From positions 1,408,001 to 1,472,000 of the forward strand of contig CAVWVI010000003.1 in the NCBI GenBank assembly GCA_963758495.1: 64,000 bases of DNA. The letters run 5' to 3'. Source of the DNA: Oligoflexia bacterium. Its GTDB lineage: Bacteria > Bdellovibrionota > UBA1018. The translations under genes and the position numbers were made by a program. This document shows, piece by piece, positions 28,158 through 59,120 of the stretch; position 1 is the first letter of the stretch, and every line of letters begins with the position of its first letter. Under the pieces are notes generated by a model. The model was given only the letters and a program-made list of their open reading frames with translations, was not told where the DNA came from and searched no databases.

Positions 28158-29333
28158 CTATAAGTCCATTTCACGTAACAGCTTTTGTATCGGCAAAACC
28201 CAGGTGTCTTCAATTCTCTTTTCCTGATCGTCCATCGTAACAACGACAGGTGTGTAATTCTCCCCAATATACCGGGAGAATTCGCGTAGGGGTCGTATGT
28301 CTCCTGCGGTCAGATTTGAACTCGCTTTAACTTCGATTGCCCAGACATGGTTCCTAAGCTTTATTATGAAATCAATTTCGAGCCCTCCTCGGGTCCTAAA
28401 ACTGGAAATTTCGATTCGCTCATCCTTGGACTGGGCCGACTGTATCAGTTGGTTAAACACCAAATGCTCCGCCAGTAATCCAATTCGATCAGATGATGCA
28501 ACAAAATTTCCAAGGATTCCATTGAGGACCCCCTGATCGAAAAAGAAGAATTTAGGGTGTTTTACTAAATCTGCGCCTTCAGTATAAGTACACGGGAGAA
28601 CTTTACGCGCTACCAAAGTGTCTTCAAGAATCTCAAAAAATCTGACACACGATTGGCGAGAGACTCGAGCTTTGGTGGATACCTTGCTCAAATCAAGAAC
28701 TTTGCCTGAGTTTTCAGCAGCGACAAAAATAAAGCGTGAGAACCCCTCAAGGTTACGGGTAAGTGCTTCGGCTTGGATTTCTTCAGTTAAATAGGTTGCA
28801 GCATAGCTCTCAAGTAACTTTTCCTGAAATTTCCTTTCGTTTGATAAATAAGGTTCAGGAAGAAATCCCATTTCCAGCCCTTTTTTTATATCAACATTAT
28901 ATTTTAATTCATTCCCGGCCAACGGGCCAAGTTGAAAGGTAAAAATTCTACCGGGAAGAAGATTTGCTCCTCCTCGCCGTAATTTTCGAGCACTGGAGCC
29001 TGAAAGAAAGAATTTTAGATTTCCCCACTTATCAGGTCGATCTAAGAGACTTTGAACTGTATTCAGCAGAGTTGTTAATTTTTGAACTTCATCAATAAAA
29101 ACAGTGAACTGCTGCTCAAATTTCCCGCCACCAGGAAGAAATGCTTTCAACTTCTGCTCAAGCAACCCAGGATTACTAGAAAATGCCAAATATTCCGATT
29201 GATTAGCAAGATTAATCTCTAAATCAGGCGACAGTGTGCGGATTAACGTGGACTTCCCTACTTGGCGTGGACCGAGTAAAAGAACACTTTTTGGAGAAGC
29301 TTCAAGACTTTTAGATATCAATCTGTTAAGCAT
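28158..29333 (-). CDS. AAA_14 ATPase with DUF4143 (PD-(D/E)xK-like) C-terminus
   Basis: GPRQVGKST, IDEVQ, LSGSSARKL, LPGR, EIDF...AIEVK. Confidence 0.9.
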   Translation of the reverse strand: MLNRLISKSLEASPKSVLLLGPRQVGKSTLIRTLSPDLEINLANQSEYLAFSSNPGLLEQKLKAFLPGGGKFEQQFTVFIDEVQKLTTLLNTVQSLLDRPDKWGNLKFFLSGSSARKLRRGGANLLPGRIFTFQLGPLAGNELKYNVDIKKGLEMGFLPEPYLSNERKFQEKLLESYAATYLTEEIQAEALTRNLEGFSRFIFVAAENSGKVLDLSKVSTKARVSRQSCVRFFEILEDTLVARKVLPCTYTEGADLVKHPKFFFFDQGVLNGILGNFVASSDRIGLLAEHLVFNQLIQSAQSKDERIEISSFRTRGGLEIDFIIKLRNHVWAIEVKASSNLTAGDIRPLREFSRYIGENYTPVVVTMDDQEKRIEDTWVLPIQKLLREMDL

Positions 29334-29586: not shown

Positions 29587-31228
29587 ATGGGCCTCAATCT
29601 GGGGAGTGGTATAATAGAAACTGCTTCGTAAAGTAGTTTCAACCAGTCTAACCAGCGTGCCAAGGAGGGAACGTTGTTATGAACTATTATATTGGAATGG
29701 ATGCACATGCAGCAACAACAACCGTCGCAGTCGTGGATGAAAAAGGGAAAAATATTGATCGCCAAAATTTTGCCACTACAGAGGCAAATTTACTTGGATT
29801 CATAAGAAAGATTAAGGGGAAGAAGTTCCTGACATTTGAAGAAATGCATCTGGCTCAGTGGTTGTATATCATACTAAAAAAAGAGGTAGATCACCTGGTA
29901 GTTTGTAATCCTGTTTATGTAGCTGAAAAACAGGGAGCAAAAACAGACTTTAGAGATGCTCTACATTTAGCTCAGGAACTTAGAACGGGGCATTTGGTTG
30001 CCGTTTATCATGATGAAAGTCACTGGATCCAGCTGAGGGTTCTAGTGTACGGCTATTTGGCCTTAGTAGAAGAAATCATTCGAACTAAGAATAGACTGAA
30101 GGCAGTATTTAGATCCGAGGCGATCGATACATCACAAACAGATTTTTATGAAAAAACGAGAGACCGATTAAAAGAACTGTCTCATGAGAGTGCACGGTTT
30201 GTTGCTGAGAATCTTTATTGGCAGATTGATGGTTTAGAGAAAAGAAAACGAGAATACCGTGAGGTTCTTCAGCGTAATTCTAAAAAATATAAACCTATTA
30301 AAAATCTCATGACTATTCCCGGGATTAGTACGGTTCGAGCAAGTATTATCACAGCTGTAGTTTGCACACCGCACCGTTTTAAGAATAAACACCAATTCTG
30401 GGCTTATTGTATGTTGGCAAGACATATCCAAATGAGTGATGGAAAAATCTATGGAAATAAAAAAATTCATGGAAGGGCAGATCTAAAAGAAGTTTTTTTA
30501 GGAGCAGCCGAAAGTGCAATGAGAAGTGAAGGGTTCTTACGAAATTATTACGAAGAACAAAGAAAAGAGATTCCTTATCAGGACGCTAAAAGGGCTCTAG
30601 CTAGAAAAATTGCGGCACTCAGTATAGCCCTTCTTAAGAATAATGGAACTTATCAAGATGACTATGAAAAGCAACAAGAGGAGAAAGCTCAATTTCGTAA
30701 AATGCTAAATAAAGACGTTTGAAAACATTTCAAGTAATCTGATTACGCATGGAAAATAGGCGTATCCTGAAGACCGAATTTGTTCCTCCTTGTAGGACGT
30801 TCAAACTGAAGGTCAGTGGAAGATCTCTGGAAGGGATACTGATTGCTTGGGATGGGGGATGAGGCCCATTAGGAAGCGTGGTCGTCTAACGATAAGACAG
30901 GCCCAAAGGTAGCGACTGGCACGCCCCCGTATTATATCCAAAATTGTCATGGCACGGGCTGTATTCAAAAATACGTATTGTTCGGTCGACGATTTTTTCA
31001 CAGGCGAATGAAGGCGTGTTTAAACGGACTTTCTATTTAGACAATTGAAAAGCAATCATAAAAAAGTGGTCCCTCTATTGAAGATCGTATTTGCGTCGAT
31101 TTCACTTACGAATCAGATTCTGAGCTAGTGCGGAGTCCAGGGACGCCAGCGTTGATCATTAAAATATCAACAAAGGTGATTGGAGATGTGTATCAAAAAT
31201 CGCTTGCTTTCTTACAGGCACTTTCGAT
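29587..31228 (+). mobile_element. IS110-family insertion sequence with short left end and about 500-nt structured right end; exact ends uncertain by about 15 nt
   Basis: Transposase ORF; TATAAT at 29610 and TTGCTT at 31204; the flanks GGGCTAATCGC (29573-83) and GTGATTAGTCC (31230-40) re-form a stem when the element is removed. Confidence 0.75.
29679..30722 (+). CDS. IS110 family (DEDD/RuvC-like) transposase/recombinase
   Basis: YIGMDAH, FEE, KTDFRDA, LMTIPGI, F..YCML...SDGK, ALARKIA; SD AGGAGG. Confidence 0.93.
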   Translation: MNYYIGMDAHAATTTVAVVDEKGKNIDRQNFATTEANLLGFIRKIKGKKFLTFEEMHLAQWLYIILKKEVDHLVVCNPVYVAEKQGAKTDFRDALHLAQELRTGHLVAVYHDESHWIQLRVLVYGYLALVEEIIRTKNRLKAVFRSEAIDTSQTDFYEKTRDRLKELSHESARFVAENLYWQIDGLEKRKREYREVLQRNSKKYKPIKNLMTIPGISTVRASIITAVVCTPHRFKNKHQFWAYCMLARHIQMSDGKIYGNKKIHGRADLKEVFLGAAESAMRSEGFLRNYYEEQRKEIPYQDAKRALARKIAALSIALLKNNGTYQDDYEKQQEEKAQFRKMLNKDV

Positions 31229-33422: not shown

Positions 33423-34890
33423 TTACAATAGATTTTGTATCGCCTCTACAGCTTCTCGAATGACTGGATCATGATCCATGCCTGCTTCAATTTTACTACA
33501 TGCGTGTAAAATGGTGGTGTGATCTTTGCCGCCAAAATAACTACCAATCTCCTTGAAGCCAAGACCCGTGTACTTTCGCATGAGATACATCGCAATTTGT
33601 CTCGGAAGTGCTACAGCTCGAATTCGAGTAACAGACTTTAGGTCTTGAATTCTCAAATGGTAGTGCTTCGCCACTGCTTGTTGAATCGATTCGATTGTAA
33701 AATTAGACCCTTCATCAGGAACGGCCGTTTTCAACTCATGTTTTGCCATCTCGAGAGAAATTTCAGCTCCAGTCAATGATGCTTGAGCTTGAAGCCGAAT
33801 TAAAACACCTTCTAACTCACGAACATTAGACTTAATATAAGAAGCTAAAAAAGTCGCGACATCATCTGGAAGATAGATATCATCTCGCTCTGCTTTCGCT
33901 TTAAGAATCGCAATTCTGAGTTTCAATTTCGGGAGGGCTAATATCGGCGACTAAACCCCACTCAAATCGAGTCCTCACACGCTCTTCCAATCCTTCAATT
34001 TCCTTCGGAGGCCGATCACTTGAAACCACGATTTGCCTCTTTGAGCTATGGAGTGCATTAAAAGTATGAAAAAACTCTTCCTCACTGGTGTTTTTGCCTG
34101 CAATAAATTGAATATCGTCGATCAAAATCATGTCGTAACTGTCGCGATACTTCGCTCTAAATTGTGGCATCCGCCTATGCTGTAAAGAATCAATGAGCTC
34201 ATTCACAAATTTTTCAGCTGAAAGGTAGGCCACCCGTGCATTTGGGTTTTGTGCGAGCAAGCGATTTCCAATTGCATGAAGTAAATGCGTTTTTCCTAAT
34301 CCAGGAGGGCTATAAAGGAAAAGGGGATTGTATTGGCGTGCAGGCTGTTCAGCTACCGCAACTGCAGTTGCATGCGCAAATTGATTACTCGCACCCACAA
34401 CGAAACTATCAAAAGTATATCGAAGATCCGGATAATCGTTACCCGATCGAAGACTGGTATGCACTACCCCAGGCGCTGAAGTGACTAATGGAGTGCCGCC
34501 TGAGGACTGAGGGGCGGATATCTGAAAGTCTTGTTCGATCAGGTTAAATTTAAAATCCTTTATAATTTCTTTCACTTGAAGCTGTAGCTCACAGGGTGAG
34601 CCTGCCACTTGTGCAAGAGCGCCCTCAATGGCTTTTTGATAATGATCTCGCACCCATTGGGCCGAAAAGTCATTAGGGGCAGCCATGACTGCTTTATGGC
34701 CATTTTGAACTTGCTCTATCTCCAGCAATTCCAATGGATAGATCCACGCATGGAACTGGTTGGGTACCACCGTCTGCTCTAAAAGACGACAAGCAGCCTG
34801 CCATAATTCGGGCAGTTGCCCTGTGTTGAAGTGAATTGAATTATTCATAGCCGAACTAATTGAACTAACATGAGGGCTTCTACTTGACAA
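33423..34890 (-). pseudogene. dnaA: Chromosomal replication initiator DnaA, split by a +1 frameshift near 33918 (real lesion or sequencing error)
   Basis: N-terminal part has GLGKTHLL, IDDIQF and RTRFEWGL; C-terminal part has RIAILKAKA, SNVRELEG and GGKDHTT. Junction GAA ACT C AGA ATT; removing one base restores ...PPEIETRIAIL... Confidence 0.93.
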
Positions 34891-41611: not shown

Positions 41612-41679
41612 TTTTGATATCCCAATTTGGGATATCAAAAATGGAATCTCACGGTGAACGACAAAACCCCCCTTTCTTC
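41612..41679 (+). pseudogene. Relic ORF6N gene fragment retaining the palindrome TTTTGATATCC-CAATTTG-GGATATCAAAA
   Basis: From 41614 it reads LISQFGISKMESHGERQNPPFF, aligning with LNSQFPISSTEHGGRRYLPYIF in the ORF6N protein at 53185. Confidence 0.6.
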
Positions 41680-41925: not shown

Positions 41926-42410
41926 TGTGGATAAGTCTGTGGATAAGTGTGTGGATAACTTTTCGTCAAAAAACTTATCCACAAGTTATCCACAGGGTTA
42001 TCCACAAGTTATCCACATCTTACACAAGATGTTTGTCTATAATATCAATACCTTATAAAGTTATCCACATCTTACACAATTTCTATCCCGAATGGAATAT
42101 TTGATTAGTTAACTTTATTACTAGGTCTTTGTGGATAACTCTAAAAAATGACCTCAAAAAATGGCTGTTTTTAGTCAATACATGACTACCCATATCAGGT
42201 AAAAAAGTTATCCACAAAATCGTGTGGATAAGTGTGTGGATAACTTTTTTTTAGGGGTAAAATAAAGTTATCCACAAAATTGAAAAAGTTATCCACAGAC
42301 TTATCCACAAAGTTATCCACATGGTTTCTATATTAATTTCAATAAGTTAAGTGAGTTATCCACTTATCCACACGCCCTACTACTACTACTGTCTTAATAT
42401 ATATATAATT
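41926..42410. other. oriC: Chromosomal replication origin oriC
   Basis: 17 perfect DnaA boxes (TTATCCACA/TGTGGATAA) by hand count plus one single-mismatch box; IHF site TATCAATACCTTA (42043); terminal box pair followed by CGCCC, (TAC)4 DnaA-trios (42378-42389) and an AT run; directly upstream of dnaN. Confidence 0.96.
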
Positions 42411-42551: not shown

Positions 42552-43658
42552 ATGAACTTTTCAATTGATCGCTCACCGCTATTAGAAGCACTTCAAAAAG
42601 TGCAAACCGTGGTTGAGAAAAAAAATACAATACAAATTCTTGGCAGCATTCTTTGCACAGTGAAAAATCAAGAGTTATCTCTTTGTGCAACAGACTTAGA
42701 AGTCGGGATTAAAGTGAATCTCCCAGTAGAGGCTCAGCAGGAGGGAAAGATTACTCTCTCAGCAAAGCACTTTCTAGATATTGTCAAAGAACTTCCAGAG
42801 AAGAAGCTGACCATTACGAGAAAGGACAATAGTTGGATTGAAATCAACTGTGGGAAATCCCGCTTTAATATAGTGAGTCTTTCAGCGGATCAGTTTCCGT
42901 CCCTTCCTGGGTTTGAAGATAAGATTTATTTTGAGGCACAAACCAAGTCTTTAATTGATATGATTGATCGGACACAGTTCGCTGCTTCTACGGACACAAC
43001 ACGGTATCACATTAACGGGGTATTCTTTGAACACCTTGAAAACAGCGTCATGAGAATGACCGCAACAGACGGTCATCGATTGTCCTTTGTAGATCAAGAA
43101 GTCTTTTTGAATAACCCTGATCTTAAACGGGGGATTATTATCCCGAAAAAAGGGTTAGCAGAATTTAGAAAAATTTTAGATGAAGGTAGTCAAACTATCG
43201 GTCTTTCTTTTGAGAGAGGCTATATTTTTGCAAAGTTGGAAAGTACTTATTTGTTTATTCGTTTGATCGATGGCGAATATCCTGATTATAGACCTGTGAT
43301 TCCCAAGGCCGTTGATCGGTTGGTGAAAATTGATCGACAAACTTTTAATTCTGCGCTCAAACGAGTCAGCTTACTCGCAAACGAGAAAAGCAGAGGAATC
43401 AAACTGACTCTACAAGCAGGTTCTCTTGTTATTTCTTCCAGTAATCCAGATATGGGAGAAGCACATGAAGAACTTGAAGTTGAGTATACAGGTGAATCCA
43501 TGGAGATTGGTTTTAACTCTAAATACTTGCTTGAGAGTTTAGCTGTCATGAAGTCAGAAAAACTAGAATTTCATCTTAAAGACCGATTGAGTCCTGGAAT
43601 TCTGCGAGAAGTGGATCACCAAAACCATACTTACGTTATTATGCCTATGCGAATTTAG
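42552..43658 (+). CDS. dnaN: DNA polymerase III beta sliding clamp
   Basis: ATDLEV, ATDGHRL, LIDGEYPDY, IGFN.KYL, IMPMRI. Confidence 0.98.
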   Translation: MNFSIDRSPLLEALQKVQTVVEKKNTIQILGSILCTVKNQELSLCATDLEVGIKVNLPVEAQQEGKITLSAKHFLDIVKELPEKKLTITRKDNSWIEINCGKSRFNIVSLSADQFPSLPGFEDKIYFEAQTKSLIDMIDRTQFAASTDTTRYHINGVFFEHLENSVMRMTATDGHRLSFVDQEVFLNNPDLKRGIIIPKKGLAEFRKILDEGSQTIGLSFERGYIFAKLESTYLFIRLIDGEYPDYRPVIPKAVDRLVKIDRQTFNSALKRVSLLANEKSRGIKLTLQAGSLVISSSNPDMGEAHEELEVEYTGESMEIGFNSKYLLESLAVMKSEKLEFHLKDRLSPGILREVDHQNHTYVIMPMRI

Positions 43659-51876: not shown

Positions 51877-52185
51877 ATGAATTTTCGTAAGACCCTGTTA
51901 TTAATTGGGACTTTAGTAATGACTTTTGGCGCTTCGTTCGCTTTTGCTGATGAAGCAGCAGCGGCACATGGAGCAGGTATGGGTTCACTTGGAGCCGCAT
52001 TAGCTATCGGTATTGCAGCATTCGGTGGAGCTCTCGGACAAGGTAAAACAGCTGCAGCAGCCTTGGAAGGGATTGGACGTAATCCATCTGCTCAAAATAA
52101 AATTTTCGTACCTATGATTATCGGTCTTGCCTTGATCGAATCTCTTGTTTTGTACGCATTCGTTATCGCTTTCGTCAAATACTGA
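51877..52185 (+). CDS. atpE: ATP synthase F0 subunit c with signal-peptide-like N-terminal extension
   Basis: GALGQG...GIGRNP...GLALIESL; N-terminal MNFRK...SFAFA. Confidence 0.95.
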
Positions 52186-52351: not shown

Positions 52352-52423
52352 AAGCACTACGCGGAGTCCTGTTGCGCCGGGAATCCAAATCTTTACGGCA
52401 CAACAGGACTCCGTGTAGTGCTT
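52352..52423. repeat. 28-bp-arm inverted repeat with 16-nt loop
   Basis: AAGCACTACGCGGAGTCCTGTTGCGCCG / CGGCACAACAGGACTCCGTGTAGTGCTT, 26/28 Watson-Crick pairs. Confidence 0.9.
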
Positions 52424-52480: not shown

Positions 52481-52571
52481 TTTAAGGACGCAATTTGCGA
52501 CCTTAAAGAAAAGTGAACATGGTAACTATCAGAAATACTTATCTTTTACGGAGATGAGTATGATTCTTTAA
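52481..52571 (+). pseudogene. Relic ORF6N gene fragment containing a palindrome copy
   Basis: From 52482 it reads LRTQFATLKKSEHGNYQKYLSFTEMSMIL*, matching the ORF6N L-x-x-Q-F-x-x...HG...Y-L...FTE segment. Confidence 0.7.
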
Positions 52572-52625
52572 GGTCGCTGATGTGCCGTCAGATAGCGAAA
52601 TGAGAGAGTTGTGAATTGTTCTCCA

Positions 52626-53119
52626 AACTTGAGGTCGCAAATTGCGACCTCAAGTTGCGATGCGTTATTTATAGTCTTAGATATCAAAACTTGAGATGCC
52701 AATTTGGCATCTCAAGTTGTAATTTTCTCGGCGTTCATTGGGTTTTACATTTAAAATCAACTAGTTATATAGGAAATCTTGAGATGCCAATTTGGCATCT
52801 CAAGTTAGATTTACCTAAATTTGCCTACCAATTTTTATTTTAAAATTCATATATACATAAACTTGAGGTCGCAAATTGCGACCTCAAGTTGCGATGCGTC
52901 ATTTGTTATTTCGGGTACAACTTGAGGCGCCAAATTGGTACCTCAAGTTGTAAGATTCTAAAATTTAATAAAAATTCACATTTAAAATCAATTAGTTAGA
53001 TAATAAAACTTGAGGTGCTAAATTGGTACCTCAAGTTTTATAAGCTTTGGAAGTTCAAGTTTTGGGGTGTTAATTTAAGATTTCAAAAAACTTGAGGTCG
53101 CAAATTGCGACCTCAAGTT
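52626..53119. repeat. Array of seven 31-bp palindromes, A[A/T]CTTGAG-N4-[C/T]AAWTTG-N4'-CTCAAGTT
   Basis: Copies start at 52626, 52688, 52776, 52860, 52919, 53007 and 53089; spacers are 31, 57, 53, 28, 57 and 51 nt. Confidence 0.97.
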
Positions 53120-53184
53120 ACAGAAGTAAATTTTACTATGATTTAATATGGTGCGAGATTCTAAAAGGGTGTAGATCGCATGCC

Positions 53185-54102
53185 ATGCAATTAACAATTA
53201 GCGAAATTAGGCGACGGATCTACTTTATGCGTGGTCAGCGTGTAATGCTGGATGTCGACTTAGCAAAATTCTACGAAATTTCAACTAAGCGTTTAAATGA
53301 GCAGGTAAAGAGAAATATCAGTCGGTTTCCGGAAGATTTTAGATTTCGACTTACAGAAAATGAATGTGATGAATTGAATTCACAATTTCCAATTTCAAGC
53401 ACTGAGCATGGAGGAAGGCGATATTTACCTTATATTTTTACGGAGCATGGTGCCACAATGTTAGCAAGTGTTTTGAATACTGACCGGGCCATTCAAGTAA
53501 ATGTAACTATTGTTCGTGCTTTTGTTCAAATCCGTGAGTCCTCAATCCAAAAAGAGCTAGCATTAAAAGTAATGACACTAGAGAAACAGTACACTGAGGT
53601 CTCGAAAGTTATCTCCGATGTTCATTTAAAACTTATGGCCCTGACTTCGCTACAAAAGACTAATTCTTTTAAAACTCGTTACAATAAAGCTGACTTAAAA
53701 GAGCAAGAACATGTCTCGCTTGATACTAAGTTAGAGACACTGACTCTCGTTACAAAGGAAGCTAAAAGAGATTTCAATAACGCTAACGCTATCAATGAAG
53801 TGCCTCACAATCTTATAATCGGCGAAATTCAAAAAGCTGTAGCAAGATATTATAATGTAAAAATTCAGGATTTACGAAGTACAACTCGCATCAAGGTAAT
53901 CGCATTGGCCAGACAAATCGCGATGTATTTAGTCCGAAAACATACGGGGATGAGTTTTAAAGACATTGGAACTCATTTCGGTGGTAAAGATCACACAACA
54001 ATTATGCATGCTTGTAGTAAGGTTGAAGTGAGTATAAAAATAGATGCTTCAATTCGGAACGCTATAGAGTCGATTGAAGGGGTTTTGTCAAAAAATATTT
54101 AA
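53185..54102 (+). CDS. ORF6N-domain protein fused to a DnaA domain IV (DnaA-box-binding HTH)
   Basis: N-terminus IYFMRGQRVMLDVDLAKFY...LNEQVKRN..RFPEDF.F.LT...GGRRYLPY.FTEHG..MLASVLN; C-terminus RQIAMYL...FGGKDHTTIMHA. The frame is also open from TTG 53092 in the last palindrome. Confidence 0.92.
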   Translation: MQLTISEIRRRIYFMRGQRVMLDVDLAKFYEISTKRLNEQVKRNISRFPEDFRFRLTENECDELNSQFPISSTEHGGRRYLPYIFTEHGATMLASVLNTDRAIQVNVTIVRAFVQIRESSIQKELALKVMTLEKQYTEVSKVISDVHLKLMALTSLQKTNSFKTRYNKADLKEQEHVSLDTKLETLTLVTKEAKRDFNNANAINEVPHNLIIGEIQKAVARYYNVKIQDLRSTTRIKVIALARQIAMYLVRKHTGMSFKDIGTHFGGKDHTTIMHACSKVEVSIKIDASIRNAIESIEGVLSKNI

Positions 54103-56459: not shown

Positions 56460-59120
56460 TTATTCAAGGTAAGATTTTAAAAATCTTCCGGTATGACTCG
56501 CCTTGTTTTTAACTACTTCTTCAGGGGTTCCAATAGCGATAATAGAACCACCCGCTGTTCCTCCGTCCGGCCCTAGGTCAATAATATGATCTGCGACTTT
56601 AATGATGTCTAAATTATGTTCAATGATGATGACGGTGTTTCCTTGGTCTACCAGAGCTTGTAAGATGGCAATCAGTTTATTGATGTCATCAAAGTGTAAC
56701 CCTGTAGAAGGCTCATCTAGTATGTAGACAGTTCGACCTGTACTACGACGAGAAAGTTCTTTAGAGAGCTTAATTCTTTGTGCTTCACCCCCAGAAAGAG
56801 TGGTGGAACTTTGCCCGAGATGAAGATAGCCTAGGCCTACTTCATTAAGGATCTTGAGTTTGGCTTTGATGTGAGGGATTGCCTCAAAGAACGGATAGGC
56901 TTCGGCGCCAGTCATTTCAAGAACGTCCGCAATATTTTTCCCTTTATAGCGAATCTCCAGGGTCTCTCGATTGTATCTGCGGCCTTTACAGATGTCACAT
57001 TGAACATAGACGTCAGGGAGAAAGTGCATTTCAATTTTTGTGGTGCCATCGCCTGCACATGCTTCGCAGCGTCCTCCTTTTACATTGAAGGAATATCTTC
57101 CTGGACCGTACCCCCGAACTTTGGATTCAGGAAGTTGCGCGAAAAGTTCTCTAATGAAGCTGAAAAGGCCAGTGTAGGTGGCGGGATTGGAACGTGGAGT
57201 TTTTCCAATCGGGCTTTGATCAATGTCGATCACTTTATCAATATGGTTCATGCCGTGAATTTTACGGACATGAAGATCGCCATAATTAATCTTATAGAGA
57301 GATTGAATTAAGGAGCGATAAAGGGTGTCAATAATGAGAGTGCTTTTACCGCTTCCAGAAACTCCGGTGACGCAAGTCAGGACACCTAGTGGCACATCCA
57401 CATGGATGTTCTTTAAATTATTTTGAGTAGCCCCTTCCATTCGTAGAGCGCGGTCAGACGTCCATGGGCGTCTGACTTTGGGAATTGCAATTTTTAAGTC
57501 ACCTCGCAAATAGCGACCGGTTAAACTTTTCTTAGATTTTAAAATATCTTTGACGGTGCCAGCTGCAACAATATGTCCACCTAAGTTGCCTGCTCCTGGT
57601 CCTAAATCTAAAACCCAATCTGCTCGTTCAATTGTTTCTCGGTCGTGTTCGACAACGAGTACTGTGTTCCCTAAGTCACGAAGGCGGGAGAGGGTGGAAA
57701 TGAGCTTTTCATTGTCGCGTTGATGGAGACCAATACTTGGCTCGTCCAGAACATAAATGACACCTACCAGGGAGCTTCCGATCTGAGTCGCTAATCGAAT
57801 TCTTTGTGCTTCTCCACCGGAAAGGGTTTGAGCAGAGCGACCTAGGCTGAGGTAACCGACACCGACTTCATTGAGGAAATGGAGACGTTCCTTGATTTCC
57901 TTTAAGATTCGATCGGCAATCATTTTTTCACGATCTTTCAAATTTAGAGTTTCGAAAAAACGTGCGACTTCTAGGATGGAAAAGCTACAGATTTCGGCAA
58001 TATTTTTATTTACGAGTTTGAAACTTAAGCTTTCTTTACGGAGTCGTGTTCCGAGACAGGATGGACACGCATCTGTTTCTGCAGTGATTTCACGGGGAGC
58101 TATGATTTCATCACGTTCGTTTTCACGTTCAGTTTTAAGAAGAGCTTCTTCATCTTCTTTGTCCTTTGCTTGACTCTTTGCTGGATCAATTCCCAGACCA
58201 TCACATTGAGGACAAGCTCCCATGGGGCTGTTGAATGAAAACGTTCTGGGTTCAGGCTCTGGATAGCTGATATGACAATTCACACAAGAAAACTTTTCTG
58301 ACATGAGAGTTTCTTTGCGGACAGAATTTTCTTGAGTTTCGAGCAGGAGAAGACCTTCACCTAGTTTCAAAGCAAGTTCTACGGAATCGCTGACACGAGT
58401 GCCAAACATTCCCAGATCGTCTTTATTCGTTGAAGGACTAGCGGCTGGATTAATTATAGGTATAATTAAACGATCAATGTAGACTGAAATATCATGTTTT
58501 TTGTTTTTATCTAAAGAAATATCCTGTGAAAGGTCGAGGACCTCTTGATCTACTTTCACCCGAACAAATCCCCTTTGGCGAAGCTGCTGCAGTTCCTTTT
58601 GGTATTCTCCCTTTCGTCCACGAACGATAGGAGCGAGAACGGATATGCGTGTTCCCTGAGGAGAGGAGAGGATATGATCCACAATCTGTTGAGGGGATTG
58701 CGATTGGATGGGCATTCCACATTTCCAGCAGAAAGGCTTTGCTATTCTAGAGTAAAGCAGTCGTAGGTAGTCATAGATTTCGGTAACAGTTCCTACCGTG
58801 GATCGAGGATTGTAGCTCGTGGTTCGTTGCTCGATTGATATCGTAGGGCTTAATCCAGAAATGGATTCAACATCTGGCTTTCCTAACTGTTCTAGAAATT
58901 GCCTGGCATATGCAGAGAGGCTTTCCACATAACGACGTTGACCCTCGGCATAAATAGTATCAAATGCGAGTGACGACTTGCCAGAACCCGATGGCCCCGT
59001 GATCACGGTGAGTCGATCTCTCGGAATGACAGCATCAATATTTTTAAGATTGTGCACTCGAGCGCCTCGCACGACGATGGCTTCGTCATTATTAAGAGGT
59101 GCACGACGTTTTGTTGTCAT
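56460..59120 (-). CDS. uvrA: Excinuclease ABC subunit A
   Basis: [19 protein letters not shown], two LSGGEAQR motifs, zinc CxxC motifs. Confidence 0.97.

Follow-up and report, generated by a model that had tools for sequence, protein, structure and literature searches.

The ORF6N-DnaA fusion gene and its surroundings

The stretch of DNA analysed here, called the window below, comprises 64,000 nucleotides of contig CAVWVI010000003.1 from an Oligoflexia bacterium (assembly GCA_963758495.1). At 53185-54102 on the plus strand it carries a gene for a protein of 305 amino acids (aa), composed of an ORF6N domain, a long helix, a disordered linker and a domain IV of the replication initiator DnaA, as delimited by Pfam, homologue alignment and AlphaFold2. 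Seven palindromes of 31 bp lie directly upstream of this gene, and 10.1 kb separate the first of them from the last DnaA box of the replication origin oriC. An earlier note on this DNA had singled out the arrangement as a candidate new system. Its description of the locus held up: a repeat search recovered the seven palindromes together with a degenerate eighth, and Pfam recovered both halves of the fusion (ORF6N, 1e-33; Bac_DnaA_C, 7.8e-30). The listed open reading frame (ORF) begins at a TTG at 53092, inside the last palindrome; alignment with homologues places the start at the ATG at 53185. Array and gene occupy the interval between atpE (end at 52185) and uvrA (56460-59120, minus strand), in which the G+C content is 0.33-0.37 as compared with about 0.42 elsewhere.

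The palindromes at 52626-53119 follow the pattern AACTTGAG-N4-CAA-W-TTG-N4'-CTCAAGTT, as found by repeat and pattern scans. The seven copies delimited by the repeat search (52625-53133) succeed each other with start-to-start steps of 62, 88, 84, 59, 88 and 82 bp. Those at 52626, 52860 and 53089 are identical, with perfect 15-nt arms around one central base and the core GTCG. The copies at 52688 and 52776 are near-perfect and have the core ATGC in common, those at 52919 and 53007 are imperfect hybrids, and the core types follow the order A B B A C C' A along the array. The degenerate eighth copy, TTAAGGACGCAATTTGCGACCTTAA at 52482-52506, was detected 120 bp ahead of the array by the repeat family and a pattern scan. 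Translated in frame, each array copy gives the motif N-L-R-[SCR]-Q-[IF]-[AG]-[TI]-S-S, a conserved ORF6N peptide. With up to two mismatches, TTGAG-N4-CAAWTTG-N4-CTCAA has nine matches in the window against 0.04 expected, a number reached in none of 100 shuffles.

The window genome is numbered G000; other G numbers denote related genomes, many of which are fragmented metagenome-assembled genomes (MAGs). Outside the window it contains a second fusion gene, paralog 2 (C3:1403653-1404606), whose product is 39% identical to the window protein. Two palindromes lie upstream of paralog 2, and four copies of CTTGAG-RTCACA-N3-TGTGAY-CTCAAG follow directly after its stop codon, between convergent genes. 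Among the 12 matches to CTTGAG-N15-CTCAAG in the 3.66-Mb genome, seven belong to the window array and four stand beside paralog 2; the twelfth, on C4, is not a palindrome (9 mismatches to its own reverse complement). Genome-wide, palindromes of this family are limited to the flanks of the two fusion genes and of oriC, the exceptions being three weaker CAAWTTG palindromes with 10-11-nt arms and one non-palindromic match to the pattern. Just before the array, at the 5' edge of the low-G+C interval, a 72-bp hairpin (52352-52423; 28-nt arms, 16-nt loop) represents a dispersed family resembling repetitive extragenic palindromic elements, with 29 arm matches genome-wide, several of them paired. A second copy (C3:1405910-1405981) is situated 1.3 kb upstream of paralog 2.

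The ORF6N domain (53215-53472, plus strand) matches PF10543 with 115.9 bits at a cut-off of 27.8 over profile positions 2-86 of 86, and phrog_4792, 'anti-repressor', with an E-value of 3.6e-26. AlphaFold2, run on an alignment of eight family members, gave a model with a mean predicted local distance difference test score (pLDDT) of 74. It divides the protein into an alpha/beta ORF6N part (1-100), the long helix (residues 100-157; 53482-53655, plus strand, by secondary structure and pLDDT), the disordered linker (158-205; 53656-53799, plus strand, by pLDDT) and a compact helical domain (208-304; 53806-54096, plus strand). The last of these is the DnaA domain IV. It matches PF08299 with 103.2 bits at a cut-off of 31.5, is linked to Protein Data Bank entry 1j1v by phmmer (2.3e-17) and superimposes by Foldseek on the box-bound E. 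coli domain IV of that entry (1j1v_A) with a template modelling (TM) score of 0.94 and a root-mean-square deviation of 0.8 Å. The stretch encoded by the palindrome in ORF6N genes corresponds to a low-confidence loop of the model, residues 68-82. In the model, the long helix is a possible coiled-coil dimerisation region; a complex prediction for two copies of residues 1-160 scored 0.16 against a mark of 0.42. A Pfam scan with E-values up to 0.01 detected neither the AAA+ domain III (PF00308) nor domain I (PF11638) of DnaA in the fusion protein. Pfam found no Rep domain either, and the repeats are palindromes and not direct iterons, so that the locus does not have the make-up of an iteron-type replication origin.

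The oriC of the window, at 41926-42372, contains 17 perfect TTATCCACA boxes, the presumed target of domain IV, and lies upstream of dnaN (42552-43658), with the gene order dnaN-recF-gyrB-gyrA on its 3' side. The box search thus bore out the 17 boxes and the distance of about 10 kb that had been claimed. This is the sole large box cluster, holding 17 of the 49 perfect boxes of the genome, and the only other cluster has three. A solitary palindrome of the family, TTTTGATATCCCAATTTGGGATATCAAAA, occupies 41612-41640; its 14-nt arms are perfect, and 285 nt separate its end from the first box, close to the 290 bp given in the earlier note. In frame it reads L-I-S-Q-F-G-I-S-K, and neither tblastn with E-values up to 10 nor a genome-wide PF10543 search detected a relic of an ORF6N or fusion gene around it.

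The dnaA gene of the window is set apart from oriC, which lies between an acyl-CoA dehydrogenase gene and dnaN, with dnaA 7 kb off on the opposite strand. This gene (33423-34890, minus strand), which encodes the closest relative of the captured domain IV, appears as two ORFs of 329 aa (domains I-III) and 167 aa (lid and domain IV) through one extra base near 33915. At this point it reads ..PPEIET-QNC.., where relatives with a single open frame have ETRIAIL; the extra base may be an assembly error or a real split. An IS110-family transposase gene (29679-30722) and a DUF4143/AAA_14 ATPase gene (28158-29333), located between the aldehyde dehydrogenase/dnaA block and the genes upstream, are signs of rearrangement in the origin region.

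A palindrome kept within ORF6N genes

The palindrome is not particular to the fusion. It proved to be a general ORF6N palindrome, found within or beside ORF6N genes across many phyla and normally intragenic. We assembled 44 ORF6N loci by protein similarity only, drawn from relatives, from gut phage-metagenome records and from plasmids of Bacteroidota, Campylobacterota, Spirochaetota, Fusobacteriota, Bacillota and Gammaproteobacteria. In 42 of the 45 ORFs that cover this region, the centre of the best palindrome of the entire ORF falls on profile positions 68-72, and in 36 of 45 its score is at least 9. The three exceptions are L009, with two copies just upstream instead, and L118 and L119, with weaker internal copies.

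A second set was selected by the DNA pattern from one genome per species in many phyla (at least 121 stretches); 79 loci with 85 sites were kept after removal of an overlapping duplicate. Being chosen by the palindrome, this set shows where palindromes lie and not what fraction of ORF6N genes carries one, a question that the protein-selected set answers. Most of its sites (56/85) are inside an ORF6N ORF and 14 lie at 4-130 bp from one; for the remaining 15, a small hidden Markov model detected no ORF6N ORF within 1.5 kb. Of 87 sites, 57 are fully complementary at the free N4 positions and 84 show no more than one mismatch there, a count that includes two duplicates from the overlapping locus L272.

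For 92 aligned sites the covariation score was 0.284 as compared with 0.116 in shuffles, none of which (0/500) reached the observed value. Two-sided changes were present in 10 of the 16 pairs, 88.4% of the cells were paired against 79.1% after shuffling, and a shift of the partner by one column lowered pairing to 43-47%. Thus, the symmetry of the palindrome is kept by compensatory changes, synonymous positions included. It constrains the encoded residues, as seen in the pairs S/V, S/A, F/G, C/G, F/E, L/A and T/A. Mismatches on the sense strand comprise 17 of the wobble type, 10 of the A-C type and 29 others. As there is no clear G-U excess, a site in duplex DNA is more likely than an RNA hairpin.

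The encoded loop accepts tandem duplication of the motif (P0006, P0122, L208 and L217). Additional palindromes are located just upstream of the gene in L009, L019, L119, G239, G323 and G334 and just downstream in L114 and L271, and copies of the same locus have locus-specific arms in common, for instance in G239 and a Butyrivibrio plasmid. Genes with ORF6N only can have a flank site besides the internal one, the two being typically 250-315 bp apart. The simplest reading of these patterns is that ORF6N proteins recognise the palindrome as dimers, and we regard binding of the palindrome by the ORF6N domain as likely. It would be the first concrete hypothesis for the large ORF6N family: each gene would contain within itself the palindrome that its product recognises, preserved across phyla by compensatory mutations. 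The literature searched gave no description of a family-wide palindrome inside ORF6N coding sequences, and those parts of the literature containing ORF6N that were available showed no sign that the function of an ORF6N protein, or of its site, has been studied.

Among phage records, tblastn of the ORF6N part against 50,697 of them gave only five matches, all to unannotated gut-metagenome entries named 'Bacteriophage sp.'. A 4140-bp Segatella copri plasmid (L120) has only two annotated genes, one for an ORF6N protein and one for a replication initiation protein, which may point to a part of ORF6N proteins in maintaining or controlling plasmids. Among the other plasmid ORF6N genes (L114, L117 and L121), those of Legionella plasmids adjoin tyrosine integrases, and that of a Treponema plasmid is placed within a type I restriction-modification operon, with the methylase gene on one side and the S subunit gene on the other.

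Ancestry and genomic position of the fusions

The fusion architecture, of which the earlier note knew no description, is not unique, as we count at least 106 fusion clusters at 50% identity. In the literature searched we found no account of the fusions as a family, of their arrays, of their location at the origin or of the host derivation of their domain IV. ORF6N and DnaA domain IV themselves are both known families. A profile search of 1.84 billion cluster representatives yielded 152 proteins for examination (145 new ones from the best 150 and seven found earlier), of which 106, with lengths of 195-370 aa, contain both domains. A word-indexed protein search had returned six other fusions among its best 120 matches. 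In public protein sets they are listed as 'hypothetical' or 'Rha-like'. The ORF6N half was covered in none of the best 80 of at least 599 metagenome matches to the fusion alignment, which were mostly ordinary DnaA, and the 80 viral-contig loci kept gave matches to domain IV only and no fusion.

The named relatives of the window's DnaN are Bdellovibrionia and Bdellovibrionota MAGs with 75-84% identity. Among 127 genomes of the class, fusions are confined to this family, with 10 genes in five genomes. A first search of the 40 nearest relatives detected none, and a sample of the phylum gave two carriers in 400 genomes. The tenth gene and a relic, both in G239, were overlooked by the searches and came to light on reading the oriC flank, so that all fusion counts are lower bounds.

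The domain IV of the window protein is 54% identical to that of the genome's own DnaA by alignment and 58.9% over 95 aa by tblastn. The resemblance noted earlier was thereby confirmed, and the strings RQIAMYL and GGKDHTT are both present. In comparison with 1j1v, the window protein retains the equivalents of R399, R407, Q408, D433, H434, T435, T436 and H439, whereas the position of P423 is occupied by K; for R399 to H439 and P423 we use what we take to be the E. coli DnaA numbering. Across the 106 fusions, R399 and R407 are invariant, D433 is found in 95 (N in 10), H434 in 102, T435 in 79 (S in 21), T436 in 100 and H439 in 85 (Y in 15). A proline never occurs at the P423 position of these fusions. 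K, R or S stands in its place, as also in the family's own DnaA, and the K of the string GFKEIG is common to the window fusion, the genome's own DnaA and the DnaAs of family members. None of the best 80 metagenomic DnaA matches has this K; they mostly read S-L/F-P-E.

In a maximum-likelihood tree of 92 sequences and 95 alignment columns, nine of ten fusion domains cluster with all six DnaAs of the family in a single clade (support 99/94), to which none of the 76 metagenomic DnaAs belongs; the remaining fusion domain, that of P0008, has a long branch and is not part of the clade. The phylogeny called for by the earlier note hence groups the fusion domains with host DnaA, and domain IV is derived, as judged from its sequence, from the DnaA of this Bdellovibrionia family. 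According to PMC5124646, DnaA of Bdellovibrio bacteriovorus recognises NN(A/T)TCCACA, which makes TTATCCACA a reasonable target for a domain of this lineage. Domain IV of the fusion probably binds DnaA boxes.

The link to oriC turned out to be stronger than originally claimed. Every fusion that could be placed is at most about 57 kb away from oriC, the genomes measuring 2.8-3.7 Mb, and two of them are directly beside it. In the window genome the fusions are found at +10.8 kb (right) and -45 kb (left). A truncated fusion-type domain IV fragment of 63 aa, probably a dead third copy, lies beside a gene for an XRE-type helix-turn-helix protein at +86 kb (C3:1535.8 kb; L004 1435-1626). In G417, the fusion on C260 ends 224 bp before a 17-box oriC, which is followed by dnaN. 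The fusion on C464 sits between atpB/atpE and uvrA homologues, the same site as in the window, in inverted orientation; four palindromes with a period of about 70 bp separate its stop codon from atpE. G239 has an intact fusion of 283 aa about 0.7 kb from the boxes, on the side of oriC opposite dnaN, and another at 49 kb. The distal copy of G239 and that of G323 stand beside serS, tetratricopeptide repeat (TPR) and nuo genes, whose G000 homologues are 44-58 kb from oriC. Altogether, the fusions occupy at least four non-homologous sites whose flanking genes are unrelated, each of them no more than about 57 kb from oriC; both G334 copies and that on G417:C313 are on short contigs and were not placed. 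As a control, nine ORF6N-only genes in five relatives were located 205 kb from dnaN (G004) or on other contigs. A proposed synteny between the loci of paralog 2 and G239, based on neighbouring PIN genes, was rejected, since these are 28% identical over 54 aa. The fusion P0126 and a close DnaN relative, P0279, each come from a 16,075-bp Logan contig, which may be one and the same; in that case a further fusion would lie at most 16 kb from dnaN.

The palindrome beside oriC recurs as well. In G239, a relic 273-560 bp from oriC consists of a perfect palindrome, TTTTTGAGGTCACAAATTGTGACCTCAAAAA, 273 nt from the outer box on the side opposite dnaN, and a domain IV fragment of 70 aa. The 19-nt core of TTTTTGAGGTCACAAATTGTGACCTCAAAAA is identical to the sites of the fusion 49 kb away. 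Thus, both fusion-bearing genomes G000 and G239 have a palindrome about 280 bp from the outer box, as against none of the oriC flanks fetched from ten fusion-less relatives, two of which end at contig ends. Between the G000 and G239 flanks, convincing alignment is limited to palindromes and boxes. Perfect boxes number 16-17 at the origins of G000, G417, G239, G008 and G001 and 0-6 in six other relatives. The idea that a 17-box oriC is exclusive to fusion carriers was rejected: no fusion was detected in G008 and G001, which have 17 and 16 boxes, respectively. These patterns suggest that the fusion arose at oriC through the joining of an ORF6N gene to the 3' end of a copy of dnaA, and that its sites beside oriC have since been kept.

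An ordinary regulator with an unusual tail would leave some of the same traces. The fusion might be a self-regulated ORF6N protein whose palindromes are operators and whose position is a trace of birth from the 3' end of dnaA, with domain IV acting as a second module for promoters with DnaA boxes or merely being tolerated. ORF6N-only genes do show the same internal and flank sites, typically 250-315 bp apart. In addition, a dnaA gene for a protein of about 500 aa abuts the box cluster in G004, G250, G034 and G032, four of the five fusion-less relatives examined; the fusion domains nest with the family DnaAs; and the gene is accessory and patchily distributed. But a position explained by birth alone fits poorly with at least four distinct insertion sites among unrelated flanks, all at most about 57 kb from oriC. 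The arrays of paralog 2 and of G417 follow the 3' end of their gene and are flanked by convergent genes, hence are not in a promoter, so that the array need not be a promoter operator, one of the roles considered in the earlier note. Moreover, perfect palindromes outlast a decayed gene beside oriC, and the box-reading residues are conserved in 106 clusters. We consider plain autoregulation unlikely.

The same arrays bear on the possibility that the palindromes act as nucleic-acid structures, be it RNA hairpins, terminators, insulators or recombination-prone cruciforms; duplication would then have produced the window array incidentally, and domain IV would have nothing to do with it. In favour of this, hairpins of three array copies score as terminator-like, and there are five terminator-like sites against 1.5 expected. 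Each of the three arrays is situated directly at the 3' end of a gene, the motif is tandemly duplicated inside some genes, and at the site shared by G000 and G417 the gene has opposite orientations. Against it stands conservation of the sequence itself, beyond pairing, at TTGAG, CAAWTTG and CTCAA. Most copies have no T-run, the mismatch types described above show no clear G-U bias, and the palindromes are limited to ORF6N genes and the oriC flank. An explanation by structure is improbable in our view.

A candidate two-headed binder of oriC and the palindromes

Taken together, the domains, sites and positions are compatible with a protein that binds its own palindromes and the oriC boxes and thereby occludes, titrates or tethers the origin, a proposal that we regard as evenly poised. 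The ORF6N head would recognise the 25-31-bp palindrome accompanying ORF6N genes, usually present as one intragenic copy, sometimes with a flank copy, and here amplified to an external cluster of seven plus one. The long helix and the flexible linker would probably make the protein a dimer that matches the two-fold symmetric site. The domain IV head, captured from a family DnaA, would bind DnaA boxes, among which those of oriC would be the dominant target because of their number, 17, and high affinity. The protein would then sit on the oriC boxes and, in G000 and G239, also on the palindrome about 280 bp away. Being multivalent, it could compete with DnaA for the boxes; alternatively, it could clamp oriC to the adjoining palindrome or to the arrays 10 and 45 kb off. 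The site clusters would be platforms for loading, buffering, titration or bridging, and as a net outcome initiation would be restrained or gated, or the origin region held. Lying near oriC, the arrays double in number immediately upon initiation, which parallels the dosage argument for the titration site datA of E. coli. An effect on initiation or on origin handling is put forward tentatively, the odds being slightly against it.

Several observations weigh against such a role. The array palindromes have four different N4 cores, all of which a single protein would need to accept, and in G000 the palindrome of the oriC flank departs from the array copies by about two positions in each arm. The window gene has no internal ORF6N palindrome: its peptide reads ELNSQFPISST and the symmetry of the DNA has decayed. 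Paralog 2 likewise has none; the fusions of G239, G323, G334 and G417:C313 retain their internal copy. Except for oriC itself, no DnaA boxes lie in or beside any fusion locus; within one mismatch there are none in L107, L110 and L004, and the one or two single-mismatch boxes in L108 and L007 are not an enrichment. Origins with 16-17 boxes are also present in G008 and G001, in the absence of a detected fusion. Searches found the fusion in five of 75 family genomes (nine genes) and in none of 52 other genomes of the class. An accessory gene with such a patchy distribution cannot be a core regulator, and most of the family can do without whatever function it has. Its proximity to oriC might reflect the way in which the fusion arose, from the 3' end of dnaA, given that dnaA abuts oriC in fusion-less relatives. 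Finally, the placeable set is small, with 4-5 distinct sites in three genomes, and related genomes are not independent samples.

Holding the DNA in place could be the task of the same architecture. The palindrome cluster would then be a centromere-like cis site that the protein links to the origin region, either to organise or anchor origin-proximal DNA or, at one time, to let an episome hitch-hike on the segregating origin. According to PMC11500499, RocS, RacA and pSK1 Par combine a winged helix-turn-helix, a coiled coil and a C-terminal anchor, and hold or segregate DNA without a dedicated NTPase. The fusion resembles the proteins described there in its N-terminal DNA-binding domain, long helix, linker and C-terminal targeting domain, and in the repeated sites beside the gene or near the origin. 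Site clusters upstream or downstream of the gene are reminiscent of plasmid centromeres, and those of G000 are origin-proximal on both sides of oriC. Against this, Pfam detects no similarity to the RacA, RocS and pSK1 Par families, and the tail of the fusion would target DnaA boxes and not membrane or pole proteins. A Pfam scan of the protein found no ParB, ParR, ParG or pSK1 Par/RocS DUF536 family. No ParA-, ParM- or TubZ-like neighbour was present at the fusion loci examined, and genes for a partition NTPase, for replication or for an integrase are all absent within about 8 kb of paralog 2 and of the G239 fusion. Most family members, furthermore, have only one or two sites. We rate a centromere-like or tethering module as quite unlikely.

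The two-headed binder of palindromes and oriC boxes can be placed among known regulators as well. Domain IV of DnaA alone binds DnaA boxes and cannot open DNA. In sequence, fold and box-contact residues the fusion is like this domain (E. coli 1J1V, Mycobacterium tuberculosis 3PVP) and like box-competing DnaA fragments. Unlike DnaA, it has neither domain I nor AAA+ and carries a second, unrelated DNA-binding head instead. Replication origins are bound by a range of regulators, including CtrA, Spo0A, SeqA, MtrA, AdpA and HP1021, and datA is a titration locus. With these the fusion would share the occupation or titration of initiator sites at or near oriC, and, as for datA, proximity to oriC would couple gene dosage to replication. 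Regulators of the CtrA type have folds and sites of their own, whereas the fusion would use the reading head of the initiator, a site cluster of its own and an accessory gene of a single family. The phage and mobile-element domains ORF6N, Rha and KilA-N have reportedly been described in comparison by Iyer, Koonin and Aravind in 2002. A clear ORF6N domain, a small gene in an accessory region and the same palindrome family connect the fusion to these 'antirepressor-like' proteins. It differs from them in that DnaA domain IV replaces the usual C-terminal tail, the palindrome is multiplied outside the coding sequence, and the genes are chromosomal and near oriC.

Both lines of evidence may be joined in a wider account, which is conceivable but doubtful. 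ORF6N proteins would read a palindrome inside their own gene, whose DNA symmetry would dictate the amino acids of the ORF6N loop. In one family of Bdellovibrionia, an ORF6N gene would have landed in dnaA beside oriC and captured a DnaA head, and would have become an accessory, origin-resident protein, an origin 'anti-initiator' or tether. By bridging its palindromes, the one about 280 bp from oriC among them, with the 17-box origin, such a protein might gate initiation in a bacterium with a non-replicating attack phase. If the fusion acts at oriC, the initiator's own DNA-binding head has found new use in an accessory protein that controls or tethers the origin, which would provide a handle on how Bdellovibrio-type bacteria hold off and release replication.

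For annotation, the fusions are a warning that a Bac_DnaA_C match near oriC is not always dnaA. Proteins that combine this domain with other parts are also encountered in viruses. Viral contigs from IMG/VR (L122-L181) encode many proteins of about 170-250 aa in which an N-terminal part of no known family precedes Bac_DnaA_C and to which PHROGs assigns no function. The stand-alone proteins of about 170 aa are, like the fusion, products of mobile-element genes that have only the DNA-binding domain of the initiator, in their case without ORF6N. Bac_DnaA_C was the sole Pfam family in 13 of the 24 viral ORFs scanned, and one of them combined it with Sigma70_r4.

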